DNA of 64,000 nucleotides from Rhodothermia bacterium (lineage in GTDB: Bacteria; Bacteroidota; Rhodothermia; Rhodothermales; JAAAOL01): contig JAUIDY010000001.1 in assembly GCA_030428385.1 (NCBI GenBank), positions 14,279 through 78,278 of the forward strand. Reading direction: 5' to 3'. Positions 60,526 through 64,000 of this stretch are shown one piece after another (the stretch's first letter is position 1; each line of letters opens with the position of its first letter). The position numbers were made by a program, and so were the translations under genes. Below the pieces are notes generated by a model that searched no databases, was not told the DNA's origin, and saw only the letters and a list, made by a program, of their open reading frames with translations.

Positions 60526-62349
60526 ATGAAACGCTCCATCCATACATCCGCATCCGGGCGCACCCTCAGCCTGCTGATCGTCGCCCTCAGTTTTCTTCTC
60601 GTTCTGCCGGTCCAGGCCCAGCGCTCCACGCCTACGCCGACCCGCACAACCAGCACAACCACCCGCGTCACTCCCGAACAACGGGCCACCGAAATGAAAC
60701 GGCGGCGCGCCTCGGCGGGTGATGTGGCCGAGGCTATTCAGCGTGAATTCCGACTCAAGCCCGACCAAGTTGCCGAAGTTTTGCAGAAAGTCGGCTATCG
60801 GGGCAACGAAACGACCACCGCTCTGACCCGCAAACTGCGTGTCCCGCCGGAAACCGCGTTTGCCTATGCCAGCAAGGCCGGCTATCGCACCAGCGATATT
60901 GTGAGCGGCCTTAAAGAAAGCGGGCAAGACACCCGTCAGATTACCGCCACGCTGTATCGCTCGCAGGTAAACGTCCGCGAGACCGCCCAGGCACTCCTGA
61001 ACAACCTCCGGGTGCGCGACAGGCAATTGTTGGGGTATCTCATCGACGGTGGATATGCCACCACGGATGTCATCGACGTGATGTTCGACCTCGAAGTCGC
61101 GGTGAATGTCATCGCCGATGGGCTGTATGGCATTAGCTATTCGGCCAACCAGACGGCAGCCGAACTACATAACCAGGGCGTGCAGGTCAACGAAGCGGCC
61201 GCGGCCCTCCAGTCGGCTGGATATGACGTTATTGCTGTGTCCAATGCCCTTCAAAGTGAATATGGCGTCGCCGCTTTTCCGCTGGTTGTTGCCTTGCGTG
61301 GAGCGGGCTATTCGGTGGTGGGGATTGCCCAGGGCTTAAAAGCTGTTGGCTACAGCGCGGAAGTGGCCGCCCAGGCGTTTTATGCTGCTGGCTACACCGC
61401 CCAACAAGCCGCCGAAGCGCTTTTGGCCGCGTACGACCTCTCGGCACAACTCCTCGCCGAGTTGCTGAAGCTAGCAGGTTACGCCATCGACGCCATTATC
61501 GAAGCGCTGCAATCGCTGTACAACCTGACCACCGCGCAGATCGTTAATATCCTCCGGCTGATTGGGTACACCTACATCGAGATCGGCCAGGCCATGCAGG
61601 ACCTGGGCCTACAGCTCGACGAAATTGGCGACGCGTTCATCGACGCGGGGCTGAACAACCCCAACGAATTCGCCGAGACGCTCTTCCAGATGGGTGTAGA
61701 CCTGATGGATGCCGCCGCTGAGATGGAACGCCTCAGCATGGACATGATCGCCATCGGCCAGGCCCTGACGCAAGAATACGGCGTCGCCGTTGCACCGCTC
61801 GCCGCCGCCATCTTTGCCGCAGGGTTCACCGGGCAACAGGCAGGTCTCGTGCTCAAAGGAGCGGGTGCTGGCGCTTTCATCCTCGCCGATGCGATGAGCA
61901 AAGCCGGATACGGCTACGTTGCCATCGGGATCGCGCTGAATGCCGCCGGGCATTCGCTCTACGTCGCCGGTCAAAACCTAAAAACCGTTGGCTATACCGT
62001 CCTGCAAACCGCCGATGCACTCGAAGAAGCCTTTGGTGATCCGGTAGGCACCATTGCCGACGCGCTCAAACAAGCGGGCTATTCCCGCGACCAGATCACG
62101 GAAGCGTTGAAAGTACAGTTCAACCGCACGGTGTCACAAACCGCCGAGATTCTGGACGACCTGGGCTACTCGCCCACCAGCATCGCCAATGCGCTGGTCA
62201 ACGTCTACAACGCCAGTGCTACGTCGGTCGCGAATGTTCTCTTCAACCTGGGCACCTCTTTCAACCAGGTGGTGAGTGCGCTCGTGAGTGCCTTTAACTG
62301 GACAACGGCGCAGGCCACCCAGTTCCTCGTCGGCCTTGGCTTCAACTAG
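60526..62349 (+). CDS. Secreted alpha-helical repeat protein (~19 copies of a ~29-aa two-helix unit)
   Basis: ATG 60526 gives the signal MKRSIHTSASGRTLSLLIVALSFLLVLPVQAQ, followed by a Thr/Pro/Arg linker. Repeats are of the form h-A-x-x-L-x-x-A-G-Y-x-x-x-x-h-x-x-A-L-x-x-x-[YF]-x-h, for example IADALKQAGYSRDQITEALKVQFNRTVSQ. Confidence 0.7.
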   Translation: MKRSIHTSASGRTLSLLIVALSFLLVLPVQAQRSTPTPTRTTSTTTRVTPEQRATEMKRRRASAGDVAEAIQREFRLKPDQVAEVLQKVGYRGNETTTALTRKLRVPPETAFAYASKAGYRTSDIVSGLKESGQDTRQITATLYRSQVNVRETAQALLNNLRVRDRQLLGYLIDGGYATTDVIDVMFDLEVAVNVIADGLYGISYSANQTAAELHNQGVQVNEAAAALQSAGYDVIAVSNALQSEYGVAAFPLVVALRGAGYSVVGIAQGLKAVGYSAEVAAQAFYAAGYTAQQAAEALLAAYDLSAQLLAELLKLAGYAIDAIIEALQSLYNLTTAQIVNILRLIGYTYIEIGQAMQDLGLQLDEIGDAFIDAGLNNPNEFAETLFQMGVDLMDAAAEMERLSMDMIAIGQALTQEYGVAVAPLAAAIFAAGFTGQQAGLVLKGAGAGAFILADAMSKAGYGYVAIGIALNAAGHSLYVAGQNLKTVGYTVLQTADALEEAFGDPVGTIADALKQAGYSRDQITEALKVQFNRTVSQTAEILDDLGYSPTSIANALVNVYNASATSVANVLFNLGTSFNQVVSALVSAFNWTTAQATQFLVGLGFN

Positions 62350-62446
62350 GCCTCTTCGGGAAGCGGCTCCTCTCGTGCCACGGCATGAGGGGAGCCCGCT
62401 TTCTCGCTTTTCTTCTCGCTCTTCCACACCTCCAACCTCGAGCCCA

Positions 62447-63199
62447 ATGAACCACGTCTTCTCCTTTTCCCGGTTGAGCTTCTGCTCCCTCTTTTTGCTT
62501 TGCTTCTTCACCACCGCTGTCCACGCCAATCCCCTTGCCACCACCATCTTTGTGAAAGACGCCAACGGCAACGCCGTGCAAGGTGCAACGGTATGCATCG
62601 GCTCGTCGATTGCGCTGGATGAGTTCGGCACCGGCACCACCGATCATCTGGGGCAGGCCATTTTTAACGCTGCGCTTCCCACACCACCGGCAACGGTGTA
62701 TATCACCGCCAGCAGTGGCATTTATAATGGGCAAATCGCGCAGCCCCTCTCGGGTACCATTGCCCCACCCAACCTGTTCGCCACGGTAGAACTGAGCAAT
62801 ACCCCCGGGGGGACATCCTGCCCCGGTGGTTTCCAGGGCATCTCTCCGGCCGACGTTTCTTTCTCGCCTGTTTGGGAAGTAGACATTGACGAAGTGTTCG
62901 CCGGGCAGGTCTTCGAGATCCAGCTTGTGCTCGAACAACTGCGCAATCGCCGCCCCTATCCGCCGCCCAGCCCCCTGCCTGTCCGAATCGAAAGCAGCAA
63001 CCCGCGCGTGCTCACCGTTCCGCGTGGGGTGACCTTTGGCCGGGGCCAATCAAAACAAGGCTTTAAGGCTGAGGTCAGTTCCAATCTGAAAACGGCTACC
63101 ACAGTGACCCTCCGTGCCTACGTCGAAGGCCAGCGCCCCGTGGAGCTGCGCCTGAAGGTACAGCCTGGCCGCGAAGCGCCCGGCGGGCGTCGCAACTGA
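62447..63199 (+). CDS. Secreted hypothetical protein with N-terminal carboxypeptidase-regulatory-like beta-sandwich
   Basis: ATG 62447 gives the signal MNHVFSFSRLSFCSLFLLCFFTTAVHA. The IFVKDANGNAVQGATVCIG block is present; the rest is unassigned. Confidence 0.55.
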   Translation: MNHVFSFSRLSFCSLFLLCFFTTAVHANPLATTIFVKDANGNAVQGATVCIGSSIALDEFGTGTTDHLGQAIFNAALPTPPATVYITASSGIYNGQIAQPLSGTIAPPNLFATVELSNTPGGTSCPGGFQGISPADVSFSPVWEVDIDEVFAGQVFEIQLVLEQLRNRRPYPPPSPLPVRIESSNPRVLTVPRGVTFGRGQSKQGFKAEVSSNLKTATTVTLRAYVEGQRPVELRLKVQPGREAPGGRRN

Positions 63200-63297
63200 T
63201 TGTCCAAACAGCAAATCCAAACGGACAATCTATATGGTTAATCTTTTTGATTTAACCACTTACATCTCTACAAAACCACCTCAAAACGTGCAAAATC

Positions 63298-64000
63298 ATG
63301 AAAACGACGCTCCCATTACCCCTATGGATGCGGTTCGCGCCCGCGATCCTCCTCCTCTTTGCCTTCACCTTTCCGGCCCAAGCCGCGAACGAATGCCAGG
63401 TCTATTATAGCTACACGAACAATAGCGGCAACACCCGTAGCCAGACCCTCAACCTGGACGAGGGCGAGACCCAGTCTGTTGGTACCAACGGTATCCGGGT
63501 CATTCAAAACAAGGAGAATTACCCCGTTCGGGTAGAGATCACCGCACTTGGCCCGATCCCGAACCAGAGAAAATGGGTCACCCTCAACAACTCCGGCGAT
63601 CAAGATCCACCGTTTAGTGTGTATCCGGCCCCGGTCACGCTGTACCAGATCGAGTGCGGTGGTTCGTCGTTTGGGTCCGCCGCCGACATGCTTTCCACGC
63701 TACAGAATGCGGGGGTCAGCACCGATGACATTATTCGGGCCTTGCGCTCCACCTTCGACCTGTCGGGACCGAGCCTCCTAGAACTTCTCCTGGAATCGAA
63801 CATCGAGCCCATCGACATAGCGAGACCGCTGAGTTCGGTTTTGCGGGTTAATGCCGAACAGGTGATTACCTGGTTACAGGATGCCGGTGTCCCTGTTGAC
63901 TCAGCCGCCCGCATCCTGCGGCAATCGTTCCGGCTTAATCTCAATGACGTTGCCGAGGTCTTGCGAAATGTGTACGGGCTTTCCATCGAAGCTACAGCGG
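63298..64000 (+). CDS. Secreted protein with the same ~29-aa helical repeat (paralog of 60526..62349); 3' end beyond the window
   Basis: Hand translation from ATG 63298 is open to nt 64000 and is absent from the ORF track because no stop is reached. It reads MKTTLPLPLWMRFAPAILLLFAFTFPAQA signal, a ~90-aa beta-like N-domain, then AADMLSTLQNAGVSTDDIIRALRSTFDLSGPS / ...VITWLQDAGVPVDSAARILRQSFRLNLND / VAEVLRNVYGLS. Confidence 0.65.
   Translation, partial: MKTTLPLPLWMRFAPAILLLFAFTFPAQAANECQVYYSYTNNSGNTRSQTLNLDEGETQSVGTNGIRVIQNKENYPVRVEITALGPIPNQRKWVTLNNSGDQDPPFSVYPAPVTLYQIECGGSSFGSAADMLSTLQNAGVSTDDIIRALRSTFDLSGPSLLELLLESNIEPIDIARPLSSVLRVNAEQVITWLQDAGVPVDSAARILRQSFRLNLNDVAEVLRNVYGLSIEATA

Follow-up and report, generated by a model that had tools for sequence, protein, structure and literature searches.

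What might a bacterium do with an exported protein that consists almost entirely of one very short helical repeat? The question is raised by the end of a 64,000-nucleotide stretch of contig JAUIDY010000001.1 from a Rhodothermia bacterium (the window, with positions counted from its first letter). Three successive open reading frames (ORFs) of its plus strand are of interest: p1 (60526-62349, 607 amino acids), p2 (62447-63199, 250 amino acids) and p3 (63298 to the window end, 234 codons, partial), with intergenic gaps of 97 bp (p1-p2) and 98 bp (p2-p3). The original prediction described these ORFs, all of which are present, as a cluster of secreted proteins, two of them built on a novel-looking repeat of about 29 residues, and it looked to a neighboring AraC regulator and SDR for a clue to their function. 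According to our analysis the repeat is a new family within the alpha-solenoid structural class, with an unusually short two-helix unit, because no match to it is found in Pfam, NCBIfam, PHROGs, PDB (by sequence or by fold) or BFVD. The p1 protein is predicted with high confidence to contain about 555 residues of one continuous helix-turn array, as would befit an exported alpha-solenoid. As a candidate for definition as a new family the repeat is solid; the function of p1 is something we infer.

Repeat unit and register

The periodicity of p1 (residues 61-607) was examined by autocorrelation with BLOSUM62, with 300 shuffles that preserve composition as the reference. The z-score is 10.6 at lag 14, 9.0 at lag 29 and 8.3 at lag 43, and falls to 7.2 and 5.1 at lags 57 and 86. 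Since these values lie far above those of the shuffled sequences, the repeat is one of register and not of Ala/Leu/Gly composition, and the compositional explanation, named beforehand as a possible refutation, fails. In p1 one helix and its turn, about 14.5 residues, make up the base period, and the 29-residue unit is a pair of related half-units, A-x-h-L-K-x-A-G-Y and A-x-A-L-K-x-V-F-G/N. The 14/15 sub-period is explained by the likeness of the halves, L-K-x-A-G-Y and L-K-x-V-F-G/N, which are pseudo-duplicates; p1 has stretches in which the GY-type half-unit returns every 14 residues. A hidden Markov model (HMM) of a 14-residue unit was too short to bound the units reliably and was replaced by a 29-residue one.

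The 29-residue unit HMM, iterated over the best 150 relatives together with p1 and p3, collected 1,235 units in 151 proteins. The spacing is exactly 29 residues in 791 of 1,084 successive unit pairs (73%), the next commonest spacings being 58, 44, 28, 15, 59 and 14. The true family-level period is 29 residues, and so the unit length proposed originally stands for the family and is refined for p1, where the half-unit sets the base period. Relatives carry from 5 to 33 units. The unit consensus reads A-x-[AILV]-L-K-x-A-G-[YF]-x-A-x-[EQD]-[VI]-A-x-A-L-K-x-[VA]-[FY]-[GN], followed by about 6 variable residues. The most conserved column is position 24 (Phe/Tyr, 91%), followed by positions 15 (Val/Ile, 89%), 4 (Leu, 86%), 9 (Gly, 84%), 10 (Tyr/Phe, 82%), 19 (Leu, 82%), 14 (Glu/Gln/Asp, 81%) and 25 (Gly/Asn, 67%).

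Predicted structure of p1

The AlphaFold2 model of whole p1, based on a 13-sequence alignment, has a mean predicted local distance difference test score (pLDDT) of 91.7 and a predicted template modeling score (pTM) of 0.68. It consists of 39 helices of about 10 residues joined by turns of 3-4 residues and runs unbroken from residue 50 to residue 603. The 39 helices correspond to 19.5 double units, in agreement with the earlier count of about 19. The region of residues 50-603 (pLDDT >90) is a tandem of helix-turn-helix elements with no globular domain between them, which is the architecture of an alpha-solenoid. A fragment of three units (residues 511-597) modeled with a 70-sequence in-register alignment gives six helices with pLDDT 98.2 and pTM 0.89. 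The conserved Gly9 and Gly/Asn25 map to the two turns of the model, and the conserved hydrophobic positions Leu4, Val/Ile15, Leu19 and Phe/Tyr24 lie inside the helices. The model is independently supported by this distribution, because the Gly/Asn positions conserved in sequence sit in turns and the hydrophobic ones in helices. Each unit would be formed by two helices of 10-12 residues, each capped by a conserved Gly/Asn-aromatic turn. The array is presumed to be an elongated superhelix that is open, and not a bundle that is closed, because no compact fold matches it and the pTM of 0.68 stands alongside a high pLDDT.

The order of segments proposed for p1, namely a signal peptide, a Thr/Pro/Arg linker and an almost unbroken array, is borne out by both sequence and model. 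The signal peptide is seen by eye in residues 1-31 (60526..60618, plus strand, ...LPVQA|QR), and an N-terminal hydrophobic segment ending in AQ is common to the stand-alone homologs of p1. The Thr/Pro/Arg-rich linker occupies residues 32-49 (60619..60672, plus strand) and is disordered in the model, where pLDDT is below 50 over residues 1-45. The helical region that follows is divided into a basic head and a canonical array. The head (residues 50-220; 60673..61185, plus strand) comprises 12 helices, from H50-59 to H207-216, of degenerate repeat character, and starts with the motif ERATEMKR...FR, which is kept in stand-alone homologs. The canonical array (residues 221-603; 61186..62334, plus strand) comprises 27 helices, or about 13 units of 29 residues; it is delimited by unit-HMM matches spaced by 29 and by helices H221-231 to H594-603 at pLDDT >90. 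The two parts are of opposite charge, the isoelectric point (pI) being 9.4 for residues 33-220 and 4.05 for residues 221-607.

Absence of the repeat from known families

The claim that the repeat is not of the TPR, HEAT, Sel1, ankyrin or PBS-lyase kind holds: none of these families matches p1 in Pfam even at E<=1. All Pfam matches of p1 are below threshold and cover a single helix-turn-helix (UBA_2, UBA_DHX29, RecX_HTH1 and RepB_primase_C). Among those of the UBA type the highest is UBA_2, with 22.3 bits (cutoff 23) confined to residues 518-544; UBA and UBA_DHX29 are lower, and PG_binding_2 reaches 11.8 bits (cutoff 21.1). The same weak matches to small three-helix domains recur in relatives of p1. 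Neither NCBIfam nor PHROGs matches the repeat, and no catalytic or known domain is found in p1 with these two libraries and Pfam. A search of PDB by sequence, with both the single sequence and the profile, gave no related solved structure; the profile draws designed coiled-coil peptides at marginal E-values.

Comparison by fold leads to the same result. Only de novo designed repeats match the whole model in PDB at E<=1e-3 (Foldseek), with TM 0.07-0.08, and natural solenoids, including those of HEAT/ARM type, reach TM <=0.24. The three-unit fragment has no match at E<=1e-3 in PDB, where the best TM is 0.45 in partial overlaps, nor any at this threshold in BFVD. No description of this 29-residue repeat was found in the literature.

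Size of the family and location of the arrays

A word-indexed protein search with p1 returned one homolog (P0001); the same search with the three-unit profile returned none, probably since low-complexity words dominated the choice of candidates; and p1 as the sole probe retrieved no related locus from GTDB representatives. An exhaustive HMMER search of 1.84 billion representatives of clusters at 50% identity yields 453 relatives at an E cutoff of 1e-3, 180 at 1e-10 and 13 at 1e-30. The repeat family comprises at least 453 clusters at 50% identity.

In 114 of 150 relatives no more than 60 residues follow the end of the array. Of the 150, 66 (44%) terminate in Phe or Trp, and 18 end with the tail [ND]-P-x-x-W. 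Such a conserved C-terminal Phe/Trp tail may be a sorting or anchoring signal. A longer common tail, G-G-x-F-x-D-x-F-x(3)-G-x-x-L-[ND]-P-[ST]-x-W-COOH, is shared by large array proteins (P0002, P0008, P0012, P0021, P0045, P0052 and others). Partner domains in the proteins scanned are all of extracellular types: RHS, Lipase_3 with Ig and PKD, PKD/cadherin, DUF11/Calx-beta, Laminin_G/pentaxin, FG-GAP and CARDB. The named sources are a "hypothetical protein" of Chloroflexota and an "RHS repeat-associated core domain-containing protein" of Acidimicrobiales. In the RHS relatives P0010, P0024 and P0029 the array follows the RHS core. In P0010 it stands after the core (PF03527, 1128-1162) at the place where a toxin domain normally sits; in P0029 (residues ~2150-2370) it is preceded by a long hydrophobic stretch rich in Gly, Ala and Val, and no DPxGL cleavage motif was found in this protein. 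The charge of the array is not conserved, its pI being below 6 in 90 of 151 proteins and above 8 in 54. Uniform polyanion binding by the conserved lysines was set aside in view of this range, from acidic to basic.

The p2 and p3 proteins

The N-termini of p1, p2 and p3 are of Sec type as judged by eye (a positive N-terminus, a hydrophobic core and an A-x-A-like site), and all three proteins are probably exported. For p2 (N-terminus ...AVHA|NP) this agrees with its original description as a secreted protein. The N-terminal domain of p2 is Ig-like or CarboxypepD_reg-like by sub-threshold matches only (Big_1, 21.8 bits, below the cutoff), and the 29-residue repeat is absent from p2 in the unit-HMM scan of the window ORFs. 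An ortholog of p2 is found at the same position in the related locus L083 (E=2.6e-35). None was detected in the locus L004 of a Rhodothermales metagenome-assembled genome, where a small divergent protein was considered as a relative of p2; its similarity is weak and was not confirmed.

The p3 protein carries the same unit as p1 (unit-HMM full-sequence E=1.4e-9) after a distinct N-terminal domain, as had been proposed, and beyond p1 and p3 the unit HMM finds the repeat in no other ORF of the 64 kb. The signal peptide of p3 (residues 1-29, ...FPAQA|ANEC; 63298..63384, plus strand), recognized by eye, is followed by a domain bracketed by Cys33 and Cys120 (63385..63657, plus strand). This domain is kept in the L004 and L083 orthologs, has no Pfam match and is likely to be beta-rich, to judge from its sequence. 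The array starts at about residue 126 (63673..64000, plus strand) and about 3.7 units are present before the window ends. The known part of p3 is colinear with a complete 641-residue ortholog in L083 (37% identity, E=2e-47), in which about 8 repeat units are followed by a C-terminal region of 290 residues. Full-length p3 is therefore expected to consist of a signal peptide, the Cys-bracketed domain, about 8 units and a C-terminal part of about 290 residues. Because the array is internal in the L083 ortholog, the array of p3 joins two non-repeat regions.

The L004 counterpart of the C-terminal region contains a CARDB domain, which scores 28 bits (cutoff 22.7). A transposase gene of the IS4/5 family (14975-15574, minus strand; DUF4096 and DDE_Tnp_1) interrupts the p3 ortholog of L004 (14105-16780) and leaves a p3-like protein cut short at 223 residues and a detached C-terminal part at 15854-16780 carrying CARDB. 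L083 encodes, between its p2 and p3 orthologs, an exported protein of 538 residues (7611-9227) whose C-terminal domain is related to p2 and which bears a HELAH motif (HExxH, zincin-like). No Pfam family matches this protein, and the window has no equivalent of it.

Conserved gene cluster around p1

The neighbors of p1 that recur elsewhere lie 4-7 kb upstream of it. They are OMP728, an outer-membrane-barrel-like protein of about 690 residues ending in ...SLSLF (53341..55425, plus strand), and P451, an exported protein of 451 residues (55438..56793, plus strand). Divergent from OMP728 is the gene of an extracytoplasmic function (ECF) sigma factor of PF07638 (52520..53119, minus strand; Pfam E=2.4e-52), and next to it that of an 896-residue Ser/Thr kinase (49719..52409, minus strand) with a Pkinase domain (E=5.5e-48) and a C-terminal TPR_10 region (E=1.3e-72). 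The hydrophobic stretch between the kinase and TPR regions looks like a membrane segment.

The association became visible in L002, the contig that bears the first homolog. There the repeat gene comes straight after relatives of OMP728 (34% identical to that of the window) and P451 (52%), and is itself followed by the ECF sigma factor gene (52%). With P451 as the probe, 80 loci were retrieved, with 139 relatives in GTDB genomes; their sources are Balneolaceae, Gemmatimonadota, Acidobacteriota and uncultured Rhodothermales, the last with the best match (63% identity). Of 81 related loci, 78 show OMP728 paired with P451, and in the remaining three (L027, L071 and L081) P451 lies <=460 nt from a contig end, so that the upstream sequence is missing. 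Neither protein has a relative in Pfam, NCBIfam or PDB. None of the 98 homologs of OMP728 has a name; PF13505 (OMP_b-brl) occurs in one that is remote. The pair looks like an undescribed conserved envelope system. The genes downstream of it vary and often encode small secreted Ig-like proteins.

A p1-type gene directly follows P451 in L002, L003, L004, L083, L086 and L091, the one in L091 being P0003, the best stand-alone homolog. Relatives of the p1 head alone follow P451 in L040 and in L087/L088, and in L089 such a head-only relative is divergent from the ECF/kinase pair. L083 has the kinase and ECF genes on one strand and, divergently, OMP728, P451, p1, p2, the 538-residue protein and p3. 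We assign p1 to the OMP728-P451 module because its orthologs directly follow P451, because L083 keeps the order p1-p2-p3, and because the head-only relatives adjoin P451 or the ECF/kinase pair; the three genes are a genuine conserved cluster, as had been supposed. It is the p1 head that is tied specifically to the module, because the large array proteins elsewhere (two with retrieved contigs) have unrelated neighbors. L080 was considered as a further repeat-protein locus and rejected, since it shares with L040 only a non-repeat C-terminal domain. In L085 (8683-10521) a 612-residue protein consists of the first 170 residues of a P451 homolog joined directly to an array. The joint may be a gene fusion, or else a deletion or misassembly; the locus looks rearranged and is suggestive only.

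The ECF sigma factor gene is paired with an adjacent Ser/Thr kinase gene also in L003, L004, L040, L083, L085 and L089. No anti-sigma-like ORF was recognized between or beside the two genes in the window, an arrangement that corresponds to ECF43-type logic, with an ECF gene, an adjacent Ser/Thr kinase gene and no anti-sigma gene. ECF groups associated with Ser/Thr kinases are described as lacking anti-sigma factors, and direct phosphorylation is the presumed means of their activation (PMC7826278; compare PMC13147305 on PknS/EcfK).

Farther away in the window, four proteins carry the C-terminal sorting domain of type IX secretion, Por_Secre_tail (5887-10374, minus strand; 25686-29282, 30865-32874 and 41096-43759, plus strand). 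Among them are two CotH kinase proteins with lamin-tail domains and a 1,495-residue LRR and beta-helix protein. They fit a host of Rhodothermota/Bacteroidota type.

Promoter-like motif shared by the cluster genes

A promoter-like motif, TGATAC-N11-GTTTTGCGATAGA, is situated 97 nt upstream of the p1 start codon (60400..60429, plus strand). A copy upstream of OMP728-P451 (53189..53218, plus strand) has the same two blocks and the same spacing, and a third, with 3 mismatches, lies about 100 nt upstream of the kinase gene (52509..52538, minus strand). The general form is TGATAC-N11-[GC]TTTT[GC]CGATAG; the window contains 3 such sites against 0.00 expected from window shuffles, and all of them are upstream of cluster genes. 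In L086 the blocks of the sites before OMP728 and p1 (41 and 3837) are kept, and the 11-nt spacer has wholly diverged. Further copies stand upstream of the p3 orthologs of L083 (9231) and L004 (positions 14020 and 13928, one of which precedes a divergent small secreted-protein gene) and the kinase gene of L085 (5825). A TGATCC variant is found before OMP728 in L083 and before the head-sharing gene in L089 (1406).

The motif can be read as having the layout of an ECF-type promoter with a -35 element TGATAC, a 17-nt spacer and a -10 element CGATAG. If so, the adjacent ECF sigma factor would drive OMP728-P451, p1, p3 and the kinase gene itself. In the window p2 and p3, separated by the short gaps given above, may be co-transcribed with p1.

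The AraC and SDR genes

With L086, where OMP728 is 83% identical, the window aligns colinearly except in one block. By blastn, L086 246-3742 corresponds to window 53319-56789 and L086 3802-4908 to window 60365-61481; about 59 bp of L086 stand where the window has 3.6 kb between P451 and p1 (~56790..60364). The block contains an ORF of 335 residues (56812-57819, minus strand), the SDR gene (58317-59153, minus strand) and the AraC gene (59277-60335, minus strand), which is divergent from p1. The 335-residue ORF has a lower GC content (0.535) and a Gly-rich hydrophobic segment, and gives a weak SseC-like match only, with no family match in any library. The block is absent from L083, L003, L004 and L091 as well. 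The AraC, SDR and 335-residue genes are a recent lineage-specific insertion outside the module, and they say nothing on the function of p1 because this insertion is missing from its relatives. In this respect the original prediction did not hold, and the locus is an example of how inference from gene neighborhood can be misled.

The comparison with L086 also shows that the p1 region is diverging much faster (69.8% nucleotide identity) than OMP728-P451 (81.4%), which fits relaxed or diversifying evolution of the repeat protein.

Possible function of p1

We give about an even chance to the explanation that p1 is a non-catalytic exported rod or scaffold of the OMP728-P451 envelope module, with a docking head and a spacer array, regulated by the ECF sigma factor and the kinase. 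A promoter type of its own, TGATAC-N17-CGATAG, would serve the cluster; the neighboring ECF sigma factor is its most likely reader and would itself be activated through phosphorylation by the membrane Ser/Thr kinase encoded next to it. The basic N-terminal head of p1 would dock onto the OMP728/P451 pair. The acidic array would form a rigid rod of about 15-20 nm, if each unit adds a rise similar to that in other two-helix solenoids, and serve as a spacer or docking scaffold in the envelope. The head would then be the system-specific part and the array a generic, portable structural element, p1 being the free-standing form of a module that elsewhere is attached, mostly C-terminally, to large extracellular proteins of other phyla. 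The shorter array of p3 may be a rigid connector between its N-terminal domain and a CARDB-containing C-terminal region. The spacer role is supported because the array of the L083 p3 ortholog lies between two non-repeat regions.

Several points weigh against this explanation. Docking of the head onto OMP728 and P451 is a matter of inference, the specificity of the ECF sigma factor for the motif is deduced from its position, and the geometry and length of the rod are assumed. The confidence of AlphaFold2 can be inflated for idealized repeats, and the alignment for the whole protein was small. No copy of the motif stands upstream of p3 in the window. A repeat-type gene is found downstream in only 4 of the 81 OMP728-P451 loci of reference genomes, and the solenoid is for this reason an accessory of the system rather than its core. 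Finally, the mostly C-terminal position of the array and its frequent aromatic end fit anchoring or sorting better than a spacer.

The latter point leads to the main rival, to which we give roughly half the weight: the repeats of the array serve as surface anchors by binding a polymer of the envelope (peptidoglycan, secondary wall polymer, lipopolysaccharide or exopolysaccharide), analogous to SLH, CW_7, LysM or choline-binding repeats, and p1 is a free polymer-binding or coating protein. Such a role suits the C-terminal arrays (tail <=60 residues) on RHS, lipase_3, PKD/cadherin, Laminin_G, DUF11 and FG-GAP proteins, none of which, among the proteins scanned, has a known wall-binding domain, as well as the Chloroflexota and Acidimicrobiales among the named hosts. 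It suits also the exposed-type aromatic residue at position 10 and the conserved Lys5 and Lys21. The helical wall-binding module of Cpl-7 (5i8l) appears among the fold matches, but at E=1.5 and TM 0.35 it is not significant, and no significant sequence link to a known wall-binding module exists. One common ionic ligand is difficult to reconcile with a charge that is acidic in 90 and basic in 54 of 151 proteins. Moreover, unlike most wall-binding modules, the repeat was found in no PHROG or phage lysin, and in p3 the array is internal. Polymer binding of a different kind would be exerted by a periplasmic export scaffold guiding a polysaccharide to the OMP728 barrel in the manner of AlgK, PelB, BcsC and PgaA, which is the nearest concrete form of the earlier idea of a polymer-binding scaffold. 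TPR scaffolds of this kind, paired with outer-membrane porins, are reportedly documented, and here too one operon encodes both an exported alpha-solenoid and an outer-membrane-barrel-like protein. We regard this as unlikely: none of the loci examined has a glycosyltransferase, synthase or polymer-modifying gene alongside the cluster, the solenoid is absent from most OMP728-P451 loci, and the same array is found on RHS and lipase proteins in unrelated contexts.

Two other explanations are much less probable still. A ligand-responsive system under the control of AraC and working with the SDR is suggested by their adjacency in the window and by the divergent orientation of AraC and p1. It is highly improbable given that neither the 83%-identical relative nor any other locus with a p1 ortholog has the 3.6-kb insertion, and that p1 keeps the cluster promoter motif right at the insertion boundary. 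Scarcely credible is the notion that there is no real repeat fold at all, the region (Ala 17.6%, Leu 11%) being a matter of Ala/Leu/Gly composition or a generic coiled coil that AlphaFold turned into a hallucinated solenoid. The marginal matches to designed coiled coils might be cited in its favor; against it stand z-scores above 10 relative to shuffles that keep the composition, an exact register over all the units collected with position-specific Gly, aromatic and Lys residues, turns that fall on Gly/Asn, and helices of only 10-12 residues, which are incompatible with a coiled coil.

Of these explanations we favor the exported rod or scaffold. A wider extension of it is rather improbable on present evidence: the array might be a new class of surface docking or anchoring element (compare SLH, cohesin-dockerin and choline-binding), and OMP728-P451 together with the solenoid an unrecognized outer-membrane display or secretion system. 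If this were true, a display system under a kinase-activated ECF sigma factor would span Rhodothermota, Gemmatimonadota and Acidobacteriota, and rods of p1 type would be the platform to which p3, RHS toxins, lipases and adhesins (Chloroflexota, Actinomycetota) attach through array contacts, unless they attach to the envelope. Apart from any such role, this is a widespread repeat family that lacks an entry in Pfam, NCBIfam or PHROGs and a recognizably similar solved structure. Its unit is among the shortest of natural two-helix solenoids and approaches designed regularity in the model, which makes it of interest for family annotation and for repeat-protein engineering. Every structural component of the envelope module (OMP728, P451, the solenoid, the Ig-like proteins and the CARDB protein) is "dark matter". 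The ECF sigma factor, the Ser/Thr kinase and a defined motif provide a regulatory handle, by which the system is testable in cultured carriers.

Comparison with known systems

Designed helical repeats (DHR4, 5cwb; 8cws; 7rdr) are the best Foldseek matches of the whole model, with E down to 9e-8, and like p1 they are idealized, highly regular two-helix repeats. With TM of only 0.07-0.31 the likeness is one of local 3Di regularity, with no shared superhelix or evolutionary relation. In UBA-like domains the helix1-loop-helix2 element resembles the p1 motif L-x-x-A-G-[YF]-x(3,4)-h-x-x-A-L. The UBA-like matches in p1 cover one helix-turn-helix of 17-35 residues and never exceed the per-domain thresholds; moreover, these domains are discrete three-helix bundles of about 40 residues and cytoplasmic, whereas the p1 array is continuous and has no third helix. 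Ankyrin repeats, with a 33-residue unit of a beta-hairpin/loop and two helices, have no Pfam match in p1, the model of which is without strands.

The CW_7 repeats of the Cpl-7 endolysin resemble the p1 family in being tandem, all-helical and carried by an extracellular protein, and 5i8l is the sole natural envelope-related structure among the top fold matches. The CW_7 unit is a three-helix bundle of about 40-48 residues and has no sequence similarity to p1. Close in unit length are the PBS-lyase HEAT-like repeats (PF03130) and the 24-residue LRV repeats, which are among the shortest two-helix units (~24-31 residues, a comparison by length and not by structure) and like p1 are rich in Ala and Leu. 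LRV alternates alpha and 3-10 helices, whereas both helices of the p1 unit are alpha and are pseudo-duplicates. Both of these families are cytoplasmic, in contrast to the exported p1 family, and have no Pfam match in it.

The TPR/Sel1 solenoids of the envelope (AlgK, PelB, BcsC, PgaA and the Hcp proteins of Helicobacter) differ from p1 in the size of the unit, which is 34 residues in TPR and 36-44 in Sel1 against 29 in p1, and in helices of about 14 residues against 10-12. The TPR signature is absent from p1 and no fold match to TPR/Sel1 is observed; the Pfam scan that detects TPR_10 on the neighboring kinase at E=1.3e-72 gives no TPR on p1. In general architecture these proteins are similar to what is predicted for p1: they too are exported, non-catalytic tandems of helix-turn-helix elements forming an extended solenoid, and they too can be encoded beside an outer-membrane barrel.

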